NCBI GenBank assembly: GCA_964371615.1
Contig: CAYJMS010000001.1
Coordinates: 23,048 to 87,047 of the forward strand
Direction: 5' to 3'
DNA length: 64,000 bases
DNA from: an uncultured Chitinophagaceae bacterium
GTDB lineage: Bacteria > Bacteroidota > Ignavibacteria > UBA10030 > UBA8401
Part shown: positions 33,568-36,757 of the stretch, piece by piece
Numbering within the stretch: position 1 is the first letter of the stretch
Layout of the letters: each line of letters opens with the position of its first letter
Notes under the pieces: model-generated
Told to the model about the DNA's origin: nothing
The model's input: only the letters and a program-made list of their open reading frames with translations
The model's database searches: none
Program-made: the position numbers and the translations under genes

Positions 33568-34128
33568 ATGGCAATTCGTTTTGCAGTAGGTTTTTTCCTG
33601 GTCATGATAATTGCCATTCCGGTTCCGGCGCAAAATTCGGTGAGTTTTGGTCCACAGGTCGGATTTTTTAAAGCGCAGGATGCTGATGGCGTTCGCGGAA
33701 TGGGCGGACTTGCGCTCCGACTCAACGTATCCGAGGGGATCGGTATTGAAGGATCCATCAATTATCGCAAAGAACGGTATTTCGACAACTACGTGGATGT
33801 GAATACATGGCCGGTGATGGTGACCGGATTGTTCTATCTGGTCCCTGTCGTCTATGGCGCTGTCGGTGTCGGCTGGTACAATACATCAATCGACTATAAT
33901 ATTCCTCCCGGATATTTGGGAGCAGGCACCACATACTCAACAGAAACGTATCAGGAATTCGGATGGCATTTCGGCGGAGGCGTCGAACTTCCCGTGACAT
34001 CGTCGGTCAAACTCATCGGCGATCTCAAATATGTGTTCCTGGATTACGATTTTACGAATTTTCCGGGCAGCAACGGTATCAACAGTAATTTTTACGTCTT
34101 CACTGCAGGATTGCTCTTTACTCTTTGA
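33568..34128 (+). CDS. Small outer-membrane beta-barrel protein (OmpA-N/OmpW-like, 8-strand class).
   Basis: The signal peptide reads ...AIPVPAQN. The protein has alternating aromatic/hydrophobic beta-strand periodicity and is rich in G/Y/N. A TATAAT box lies at about 33546 and GGAGG precedes the start. Confidence 0.5.
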   Translation: MAIRFAVGFFLVMIIAIPVPAQNSVSFGPQVGFFKAQDADGVRGMGGLALRLNVSEGIGIEGSINYRKERYFDNYVDVNTWPVMVTGLFYLVPVVYGAVGVGWYNTSIDYNIPPGYLGAGTTYSTETYQEFGWHFGGGVELPVTSSVKLIGDLKYVFLDYDFTNFPGSNGINSNFYVFTAGLLFTL

Positions 34129-34180
34129 AGAAAGTATCGAAGAGTTGTCGAACACATAACACTCAACGAAAGGAACCGCT

Positions 34181-34615
34181 ATGAAAATCCGACTATCGAT
34201 GATGACCATCGTATTGATCGTTGTCCTGGCAATGACCGCCAGTGCATCGGGCAAGGATGAGATCCGGAAATATTTCAACAATGCCGCAACCAAAGTGAAA
34301 GCAACGGAGAATCCTGTCGAAAAACGTGCGATTCTCGACAAGTCATTTGAACGAATGACACTGGCGTTGGAAATGGTGCAACAGTCTCCAATGACCTCCG
34401 GTAACGATCTCGCCGGCATAGATCACATCAAGTCAATGATACGGGAAAAACAAAATGAGATGGCGGGTGTCGACGGATATGAACGCGTGCCGGATATGCA
34501 ACTCAATCTCTTTGCGGATTACGTCGTGCAGGATATGGAGCAGGCGGATCAGATCATCTCCGTCAGCCTCGTAACACTCCTTTTGATTCTTCTCATTGTC
34601 GTGCTCTTGGTGTGA
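34181..34615 (+). CDS. Hypothetical protein with an N-terminal signal peptide and a single C-terminal TM anchor.
   Basis: The signal peptide is MKIRLSMMTIVLIVVLAMTASASG. A predicted helical region follows, then the C-terminal anchor LVTLLLILLIVVLLV. AAGGA lies upstream. Confidence 0.45.
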   Translation: MKIRLSMMTIVLIVVLAMTASASGKDEIRKYFNNAATKVKATENPVEKRAILDKSFERMTLALEMVQQSPMTSGNDLAGIDHIKSMIREKQNEMAGVDGYERVPDMQLNLFADYVVQDMEQADQIISVSLVTLLLILLIVVLLV

Positions 34616-34651
34616 TAGATTGGCATTGAATGAAATTGTCCGGAGTTTGAC

Positions 34652-35815
34652 ATGGTCGATTGGAATGAACGTTCGGAACCGAGAACGGTAATACGAATGC
34701 TTGGTATGGGCGCATGGTATAGTGCGCTCATAGGCATTTTTTCGTCATGCAGTCTCGTTCTTCCCGTGCAGCGGGATACACGGCAATTATTTCCGGAATT
34801 GCATCCGATTTCGAATTCGATCGTGTTCATTATTCATGGAGACGGCGACTATCTCTATCACGACACCGCCGGGAACGAATACAGGGCGGATGAAGAGGCT
34901 TTGGCGGGGGCTAAAAGAGTCGGAGAGCAAAATCCCGGATCGGAAGTTCTCATCTTTCATCAAAAGACAAGAAGAGACTTCCTGTTCGTATTTCCCCGAT
35001 GCGACGGGGAATGGTATCGATACCGGAATGGTTCGCTGATCGCCACGGGTTCATACTGGCGTGGTAAAGATGCATTGCGGTTTGAACCGGAAGTGGATTT
35101 GTATCGGCGGTTCGGCGCCAATAACGAAGTGAGCGGAGCAAGCGTGTTTCTGTATTTCGGCCATGAAATCCCCGAATTTCACGGCAGGAACTACGACATG
35201 TCGTATCCGGATCAGTCGTTTACAGTGAATGATCTTGCCGTGGGATTACAAGGATTCACAAATAATTCTAAGAAATTCGATCTGCTGGTGCTCTCTACCT
35301 GCTACGGTGGAACGCCATATACGATCAGCACACTCGGACCGTATGCAAAAATGATTATCGCTTCTCCTGAGAATCTTCACCTGTCATATTTCGATCTTCG
35401 GACGCTGGAATGGCTGGAGATTTCTACGGAAGAGGACGCCCTGTCCGCATTTGCGGATCGTTTCGCTCGGGAGGCATTCGACCGTCTGCGAGAACGAACG
35501 CTGACCACTGTTACTGTTGCGGTGTACGATGTAAATCGGGTGCAGGATTTTTTACAATCAGTTCAAACAACATCTGATATGTGGCCGGTGACCGACGAAC
35601 AGAATGAGCCGGCAAACAAAGAGTTGCAACCAGAGTATTATTGTTCCGACGACCCGGCATGCACCACACCGACGACATCCGAAGGAGTAAAGGTGTATTT
35701 TCGACCGGCTCTCTTCGGCCGCTCTAAGGATACACAAAGTCACTCGGGCTGGGGACGGCAGATCAAGAGTGCGTCGCCGGAATTACCGTCAAAGAGTGCT
35801 GCAACGGTTCACTAA
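34652..35815 (+). CDS. Putative clan-CD cysteine peptidase (clostripain/C11-like, PmC11-sized) lipoprotein.
   Basis: The lipobox is IGIFSSC. The candidate catalytic dyad is His in a beta-strand-HG context (EIPEFHG) and Cys 40 residues later in a hydrophobic-strand-TCYGG context (DLLVLSTCYGG). This spacing and its 387-aa size resemble Bacteroidetes C11 peptidases. The assignment is tentative. Confidence 0.4.
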   Translation: MVDWNERSEPRTVIRMLGMGAWYSALIGIFSSCSLVLPVQRDTRQLFPELHPISNSIVFIIHGDGDYLYHDTAGNEYRADEEALAGAKRVGEQNPGSEVLIFHQKTRRDFLFVFPRCDGEWYRYRNGSLIATGSYWRGKDALRFEPEVDLYRRFGANNEVSGASVFLYFGHEIPEFHGRNYDMSYPDQSFTVNDLAVGLQGFTNNSKKFDLLVLSTCYGGTPYTISTLGPYAKMIIASPENLHLSYFDLRTLEWLEISTEEDALSAFADRFAREAFDRLRERTLTTVTVAVYDVNRVQDFLQSVQTTSDMWPVTDEQNEPANKELQPEYYCSDDPACTTPTTSEGVKVYFRPALFGRSKDTQSHSGWGRQIKSASPELPSKSAATVH

Positions 35816-35874
35816 TTGTTCTCTCTCCATTACCGGAGTTACAGGATAGTCACACTAACATAAGGAATACATCG

Positions 35875-36369
35875 ATGAAAAAGATTTTTCTCTCGGTCAT
35901 CATGATCGGTTTGTTCGTCATACCTCAACACTCGGATGCACAGGAACGCCCCTTCGGTCTCGGTATCATTATCGGCGCACCGACCGGCCTCAGTGCGAAA
36001 CTGTGGACCTCCGACGCCACGGCGTTCGATGCGGGTCTCGGCTGGTCAACGGGGCGCGACCGGATAGGAACCAGGGATAGCTATTATTACGGCACGAACA
36101 GGGTCCATATCCACATGGATTATCTCTGGCATTCGTGGGATGTCATCCAATCGTCGGAACGATTTCCGTTGTTCTACGGAATCGGAGGCAGCATCAACAG
36201 CGGAGACGGATACGAATCGTCGCTGGCAATTCGCGGTGTGTTCGGCATTGCCTGGATGCCCAGGGATACGCCGATCGACATCTTTCTTGAACTCGTTCCG
36301 CTGTTCCAACTTTCTCCCTCTAGCGGATTCGGTATTGACGCCGGTTTTGGCGCACGGTATTACTTTTAA
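35875..36369 (+). CDS. Small outer-membrane beta-barrel protein.
   Basis: The signal peptide is (...VIPQHSDAQE). The protein is rich in Gly and aromatics and ends ...GFGARYYF, a typical OMP C-terminal Phe. AAGGA lies upstream. Confidence 0.5.
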   Translation: MKKIFLSVIMIGLFVIPQHSDAQERPFGLGIIIGAPTGLSAKLWTSDATAFDAGLGWSTGRDRIGTRDSYYYGTNRVHIHMDYLWHSWDVIQSSERFPLFYGIGGSINSGDGYESSLAIRGVFGIAWMPRDTPIDIFLELVPLFQLSPSSGFGIDAGFGARYYF

Positions 36370-36421
36370 CTATTGAATCAATGGAGTTATTGATCACAAA
36401 AAAACAAAAAAAGGAGCTCCT

Positions 36422-36757
36422 ATGAAACGCATCCTTATCGGTATTATAGGCGTGGCATGCATTATTTTGTTGAATACGTGTGCCGACGAAGCGGATCCTC
36501 AGTTTCGCATTACAAACGAGCGATCGGATAAAGCCAATGTGCAGATACAAACAACCGGCGGTAATACGATCAACATCAATGATGTGGCTTCAGGTCAAAC
36601 AACGGCGTATCAATCCGCGCCGGAAGGCGATATTGTCGTCACCGCGGTGATCCAAAACGAAACAATTTCTCCGACGGCAACCTTCTTTGCATCGAAAGAT
36701 ACGCGAACAACTATCGTCATTCTTGGCGGAATCACGCCGACCATACGCATCGACTGA
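36422..36757 (+). CDS. Small hypothetical lipoprotein.
   Basis: The lipobox is ILLNTC. It is 111 aa. GGAG lies 8 nt upstream. Confidence 0.45.
   Translation: MKRILIGIIGVACIILLNTCADEADPQFRITNERSDKANVQIQTTGGNTININDVASGQTTAYQSAPEGDIVVTAVIQNETISPTATFFASKDTRTTIVILGGITPTIRID

Follow-up and report, generated by a model that had tools for sequence, protein, structure and literature searches.

A divergent C11-type cysteine peptidase lipoprotein and its adjacent partner gene form a conserved two-gene cassette, mostly in Ignavibacteria-type Bacteroidota

Five consecutive genes (g1–g5, all on the + strand) within a 64,000-nt stretch of DNA from an uncultured Chitinophagaceae bacterium (contig CAYJMS010000001.1 of assembly GCA_964371615.1; this whole stretch is referred to as the window) raise the question whether they act together or merely lie together. 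A preliminary description had interpreted them as a dedicated outer-membrane processing or anchoring module around a PmC11-like cysteine peptidase lipoprotein with clan-CD-like His/Cys arrangement. Comparison across genomes demonstrates that the conserved unit comprises two genes rather than five: (i) g3 (34652-35815, +; 387 aa), encoding a lipoprotein and divergent C11 (clan CD) cysteine peptidase, and (ii) the directly preceding g2 (34181-34615, +; 144 aa), encoding a partner protein with signal peptide, predicted four-helix bundle and C-terminal membrane helix.

The comparison comprised 80 loci with a g3 relative from other species-level genomes (out of 198 g3 matches in the collection), nearly all of them metagenome-assembled genomes labelled Ignavibacteria, Ignavibacteriota or Bacteroidota; homologues of the window genes were searched by tblastn within 10 kb of g3. 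A g2 homologue is located directly upstream of g3 and on the same strand in 76 of the 78 informative loci (the remaining two, L057 and L081, break off at the start of g3), with a gap of typically ~25 nt (-20 to +65 nt with maximal open reading frames, ORFs). The two exceptions are L016, which harbours a truncated g2, and L010, where an OmpA-like gene takes its place. Likewise, in unsupervised clustering of all ORFs from the 80 loci, the g2 family (74 loci) is the sole one approaching g3 (80). The next families are present in 12–30 loci at variable distance and include OmpA-like lipoproteins, a LuxR-type response regulator, CsbD-, YtxH- and DUF4398-like small proteins, an M48 lipoprotein and others. 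Homologues of g1, g4 and g5 are found near g3 in only 9, 14 and 4 of the 80 loci, respectively, and all five genes together in a single one (L064). Gene order varies as well: g4 precedes g2-g3 in L013 and L029, the pair g4-g5 is located 4.5 kb upstream in L048, and g5 directly follows g4 in both loci where this can be judged. The close relatives L087/L088 (g3 72 % identical) retain the five-gene order; since in these the whole block from TamB-TamL-HPF through KaiC and radical SAM to MlaEFD is collinear, this represents ordinary collinearity and is uninformative on g1–g5. The preliminary description had itself suggested synteny in relatives as a check and dispersal of the genes as evidence against a module. 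Such dispersal was found, and the dedicated five-gene module can thus not be upheld; an outer-membrane location and anchoring role of the cluster are not supported either.

The predicted structure of g3 shows the extended caspase-hemoglobinase alpha/beta/alpha sandwich of the C11 family. Its structural match to C11 is strong, whereas legumain and glycosylphosphatidylinositol (GPI) transamidase (C13) as well as PorU and gingipains (C25) match much more weakly and without any match at the sequence level. The closest known proteins are accordingly those of MEROPS C11/PF03415, i.e., PmC11 of Parabacteroides merdae, the C11 proteases of Bacteroides thetaiotaomicron and P. distasonis, and clostripain, with which g3 shares 12–14 % sequence identity. 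The g3 protein passes the gathering score of Pfam Peptidase_C11 (PF03415; 32.9 vs. 25.8 bits), the match covering only residues 180-306 (profile positions 112-233 of 359), and this is the sole Pfam family matched by members of the g3 family (21/50 at E<=0.01). Neither the g3 sequence nor a 38-sequence g3 profile retrieved a match from the PDB. A profile of alignment A3, which comprises 50 divergent g3 homologues (28–44 % identity) from an exhaustive HMMER search, yielded as best PDB sequence match PmC11 (3uws chain B; E=0.17), aligning FDLvvLStCygGtP...ASPen with FDFILFDACYMAS...ASPTE. Weak on its own, this match is consistent with fold and Pfam assignment. The view that none of the five proteins has an assigned function is therefore nearly correct but does not hold for g3, which passes the Pfam model and has one homologue named "Clostripain family" by NCBI.

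A His/Cys dyad is positioned in g3 as in PmC11. His171 (35162-35164, +) follows the modelled strand 164-170 and is retained in 49/50 sequences of A3, Cys217 (35300-35302, +) follows strand 209-215 and is retained in 48/50; the two catalytic-type residues thus occupy the ends of adjacent strands. Their offset of 46 residues equals that between His133 and Cys179 of PmC11, which are located at the ends of beta5 and beta6 in the arrangement of clan CD (PMC4850288). The Cys strand and the ASP motif also align (FDxxxLSxC...ASP), with FDLvvLStC on FDFILFDAC placing Cys217 on Cys179. Fold, dyad position and dyad conservation thus bear out the proposed clan CD lipoprotein, with two corrections in detail: the histidine motif is not His-Gly but Gly170-His171-Glu172 (FLYFG-H171-E), and 45 rather than 40 residues separate His171 from Cys217 (LVLST-C-YGG). 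The g3 protein and its C11 counterparts further have in common that they are secreted or lipid-anchored and come from Bacteroidota-type bacteria. The signal peptide of g3 ends in a lipobox (LIGIFSS-C) with Cys33 (34748-34750, +) invariant in alignment A1 and present in 46/50 sequences of A3.

Several features set g3 apart from the characterised C11 enzymes. In PmC11, the conserved S1 residue to which the Arg/Lys specificity of C11 peptidases is attributed is Asp177 (PMC4850288). At this position (Asp229 in clostripain), g3 has Ser215 (35294-35296, +), and A3 contains Ser in 47/50 sequences, Ala in 2 and Asn in 1. Hence, g3 is a C11 protein by fold and superfamily, yet lacks one defining feature of the characterised members. 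Judged from this exchange, Arg/Lys specificity appears unlikely, and loss of the acidic S1 residue leads to the prediction that g3 cuts after a non-basic residue. The catalytic-type His is followed by Glu in g3, whereas C11 enzymes have Gly. The subsequent loop 172-191 (EIPEFxGxGYDxSYPD) is well conserved but contains no invariant Lys or Arg, i.e., no conserved basic autoprocessing site. In addition, the g3 family possesses extra invariant residues relative to C11 (H62, H103, H243, C331, C369 and W367); in A3, His62 as well as Gly170 are found in 50/50 and His243 in 48/50 sequences. A metallophosphoesterase-like interpretation of the invariant His/Asp residues (HGDGD, GHE) was discarded, given the strong C11 fold match and the alignment of the Cys strand with PmC11. 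Nearly all family members have Cys331 (35642-35644; 49/50) and Cys at residue 369 (35756-35758; 48/50), which may be linked by a disulfide; in the window protein, as in the two relatives closest to it, residue 369 is Arg, while a 72 %-identical relative (P0004) has Cys. The family is a discrete one: it comprises more than 1138 sequences at 90 % clustering, but its profile retrieved only 296 clusters (50 %) at E<=0.001 among 1.84 billion representatives.

Coupling to g2 extends to distant g3 homologues with intact dyad, 7 of 8 of which have a recognisable g2 directly upstream (L082-L086, L092, L093); the eighth is preceded by a gene for a 155-aa protein without Pfam family that overlaps the start of g3 by 4 nt, as judged from annotation only. 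With this gene counted as g2, the adjacency amounts to 8/8. Two dyad-lost homologues were sampled, P0387 (His to Asp, Cys to Gly) and P0358 (Cys to Pro). On their contigs of 3-4 kb, a hidden Markov model search detected no g2-like ORF, and the upstream genes are divergently oriented. Loss of the dyad is thus associated with loss of the partner (Fisher p=0.0016, n=2 dyad-lost proteins). P0387 and P0358 (loci L089 and L090/L091) have lost several further family motifs as well. Since they stand alone between divergently transcribed genes and lack the catalytic residues, they are likely pseudo-enzymes that left the cassette.

The partner protein g2 has a cleavable signal peptide (approximately residues 1-23, ...TASA|SGK). 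In the AlphaFold2 model (mean predicted local distance difference test score, pLDDT, of 78, with the core above 90), helices 24-41, 45-67, 74-95 and 105-123 form a four-helix bundle, and a predicted membrane helix (128-143) reaches the C-terminal end. No match to families of Pfam, NCBIfam or PADLOC was obtained, and the 236 homologues, all without a name, are ~55 % identical to the window protein. A C-terminal signature of g2 (34520-34612, +) is composed of Y-V-V-Q-D-M-E-Q-A (residues 114-122), a short variable spacer and the hydrophobic tail. An alignment of 41 sequences shows no variation at Y114, V115, V116, Q117, D118, E120, Q121 and A122, and the QDxEQA motif is located 21–24 residues from the C-terminus in all 120 homologues listed. 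Of these 120, 48 end in Lys or Arg and the rest in a hydrophobic residue. Four loci harbour tandem g2 duplicates upstream of a single g3 (L022, 5581-6634; L052, 8892-9897; L072; L092, 2773-3955).

Based on these observations, one may tentatively propose (with a probability of roughly 0.45) that g3 is a catalytically competent, lipid-anchored C11-fold protease and g2 its dedicated substrate, cut near the membrane. According to this proposal, g3 would be exported by the Sec system, acylated on Cys33 and held at the periplasmic membrane surface via a disordered tether of ~20 residues (residues 30-49 of the model have pLDDT <50), with its His171/Cys217 dyad cutting after a non-basic residue. The g2 protein would likewise be exported, lose its signal peptide and become anchored in the inner membrane by its extreme C-terminal helix, so that the four-helix bundle would reside in the periplasm essentially without a cytoplasmic tail. 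Cleavage by g3 in or beside the invariant juxtamembrane segment (YVVQDMEQA plus short spacer) would then release the bundle from its anchor. An enzyme-substrate relationship is favoured because of the tight coupling of both genes, the dependence of this coupling on an intact dyad, the fixed geometry of the juxtamembrane motif and the tandem g2 copies. Several points weigh against it. Conservation of g2 extends over the full length of the protein and thus beyond the tail, and the motif is predicted to lie within helix 4 instead of an exposed linker; being helical, it would suit a binding partner no less than a substrate. For g3, the quality of the model is moderate (pLDDT 66, predicted template modelling score 0.69, ~100 residues below 50), and the low-confidence part includes the conserved, unexplained C-terminal motif RFGRSK...HSGW-C. 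Moreover, inner and outer membrane location cannot be told apart by prediction in this phylum, and the association of dyad loss with partner loss is based on two proteins, both from short contigs (3-4 kb).

Some of these points lead directly to a different role of g2, namely as a membrane-bound regulator, inhibitor or docking receptor, with the bundle keeping g3 latent or positioned and g3 cutting other envelope proteins. It is common for a protease gene to be co-transcribed with that of its cognate inhibitor or adaptor, the whole g2 bundle is conserved (including the loop ELxGxNGYxRVxD), QDxEQA is predicted to be helical, and joint loss of partner and dyad would be explained equally. While doubtful when taken by itself, such a function comes close to that of a substrate in plausibility, because g2 is conserved throughout and its motif is helical. 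A catalytically inactive g3, serving as C11-fold scaffold that binds g2 or other envelope components, could be suspected from the missing S1 Asp, from Glu instead of the usual Gly after His and from the only partial match to the Pfam model. Preservation of His171 (49/50) and Cys217 (48/50) at ~30 % identity, however, reflects strong purifying selection, and the rare dyad-lost members also lack other motifs and the partner gene; in view of the selection acting on both residues, an inactive scaffold is very improbable.

The arrangement of g2 and g3 also resembles the pairs sortase/LPXTG, exosortase/PEP-CTERM and rhombosortase/GlyGly-CTERM, in which an enzyme gene stands beside a target-like gene whose product ends in a motif plus hydrophobic helix. 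By analogy, g3 might remove the C-terminal helix of g2 and transfer the new C-terminus to a lipid, lipopolysaccharide or peptidoglycan/cell-wall acceptor, the pair then representing an unrecognised bacterial sorting system, i.e., a prokaryotic analogue of the GPI-anchor transamidase or of PorU on a clostripain scaffold. Clan CD relatives performing such a transfer exist with PorU of type IX secretion and Gpi8/PIGK of eukaryotes, and g2 does combine a conserved motif with a C-terminal hydrophobic helix while being encoded beside the enzyme. Nevertheless, the fold of g3 is unrelated to that of sortase, exosortase and rhombosortase, and its structural similarity is to C11 hydrolases and not specifically to transamidases. 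No curated NCBIfam model of a C-terminal sorting domain is matched by the tail of g2, and of the basic cluster behind the helix, one residue or none is left. In contrast to GPI transamidase and PorU systems, neither transamidase subunits nor type IX secretion components are encoded near g3, and no acceptor-related gene is conserved there in the 80 loci. Only a single protein per genome region carries the signal: the motif does not recur in other ORFs of the window or of the 80 loci, for which reason a multi-substrate sorting system is not supported. Altogether, a sorting pair is unlikely. Still less probable is a module of all five genes, with barrels and small lipoprotein working together with the protease. 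The genes are separated by short gaps without predicted terminator, their order is kept in the close relatives and in L064, and g1, g4 and g5 occur near g3 above chance for single-copy genes. Yet for each of these three, at least 66 of the 80 loci lack a copy within the 20-kb neighbourhood, order and distance vary where they are present, and in the close relatives the collinearity is that of the entire TamB-to-Mla block.

All five genes of the window are considered real, since each has homologues at the protein level. The gaps from g1 to g5 amount to 52, 36, 59 and 52 nt, within the previously noted range of 35–60 nt, and none of them contains a predicted terminator-like site. An SD-like (Shine-Dalgarno) motif precedes each gene, and the same genes are called in an identical region on a 1.69-Mb metagenome contig. 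None of the five proteins matched the defence-system models of PADLOC, and g2–g5 matched none of NCBIfam. As for the remaining g1, g4 and g5, these are envelope genes whose only tie to the cassette is their chromosomal proximity in this lineage. The g1 product (33565/33568-34128, +; 187/186 aa), a small outer-membrane beta-barrel protein, passes the gathering score of Pfam OMP_b-brl (PF13505; 37 vs. 28.7 bits). The g4 product (35875-36369, +; 164 aa) is a probable small beta-barrel outer-membrane protein with signal peptide and a C-terminal aromatic stretch (...RYYF) ending in Phe. Its DUF3996 match is sub-threshold (E=0.0057; 16.8 bits vs. a cut-off of 22), and three among the 120 listed of its 919 homologues carry DUF3996 (PF13161). 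The g5 product (36422-36757, +; 111 aa) is a lipoprotein with a signal peptide ending in a lipobox (...ILLNT-C) and probably has a beta-sandwich fold, with weak matches of this type, sub-threshold only, to Pfam DUF4397 and Big_13.

The 440 nt of non-coding DNA ahead of g1 (33125-33564) contain the direct-repeat array seen before, which indeed comprises three copies (33298-33482). These are hairpins spaced by 76–77 nt, the stems of which differ in sequence yet stay complementary, while a loop of ~14 nt, AGTGGTYCTGTCCG, is common to all (3 matches vs. 0.2 expected). The predicted RNA fold of 33285-33500 has a z-score of -6.7. Past the last hairpin there is a T-run, after which a sigma-70-like promoter precedes g1. 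The same loop motif, on other stems, is present upstream of the g1 homologue in every locus keeping the arrangement (L087, 6587-6780; L088, about 4722; L064, 1196-1310). A search of 32600-37100 against Rfam yielded only a sub-threshold osmY match (E=0.36), taken as chance. The array could represent a small RNA, or a leader, whose repeated loops bind protein.

Further outward, the cluster is flanked by TamB-TamL (~25400-32674; L001, 785-8023), with TamL assigned by NCBIfam lipo_TamL (758 bits), and by an MlaE-MlaF-MlaD operon (40400-43000; L001, 15776-18317). The richness of the wider region in envelope-biogenesis genes probably explains why small genes for outer-membrane proteins and lipoproteins accumulate here without forming a module. 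Downstream of g5, the kaiC gene already recognised is confirmed as encoding a full-length double-domain KaiC (36934-40198; NCBIfam PRK09302, 702 bits) without adjacent kaiA or kaiB, followed by a gene for a B12-binding radical SAM/DUF4070 protein. Each of these two genes is located within 10 kb of g3 in ~9 other loci, and they are again adjacent in L087/L088. The gene separating TamL from the hairpin array (32723-33124) encodes an HPF/YfiA-like ribosome hibernation factor (Pfam Ribosomal_S30AE, 34.5 bits), and elsewhere g2-g3 is often found near small stress-type genes (YtxH, CsbD-like and DUF4398-like proteins, OmpA-like lipoproteins). Taken together, the HPF/YfiA-like gene in the window and the stress-type genes in other loci provide hints of stress-linked expression of g2-g3.

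Most of what is known on C11 peptidases concerns secreted Arg/Lys-specific enzymes of gut Bacteroides and clostridia, and, to our knowledge, little has been learned about their natural substrates. A dedicated upstream partner gene is undescribed for these enzymes, and a literature search retrieved no work on Ignavibacteria clostripains or on the pairing of a C11 lipoprotein with a partner. The g3 lineage, represented in ~200 species-level genomes of mostly Ignavibacteria-type Bacteroidota, has kept the dyad, changed the specificity residue and become genetically locked to g2. The cassette is thereby one of the few instances where genome sequence points to the protein that a clan CD protease has as its physiological partner or substrate. 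Should g3 indeed cleave or transfer the anchored g2 protein, this would constitute a new envelope protein-processing route in diderm bacteria; otherwise, g2-g3 would still provide a clean example of a protease-regulator cassette, with the supposed five-gene module corrected to a neighbourhood.

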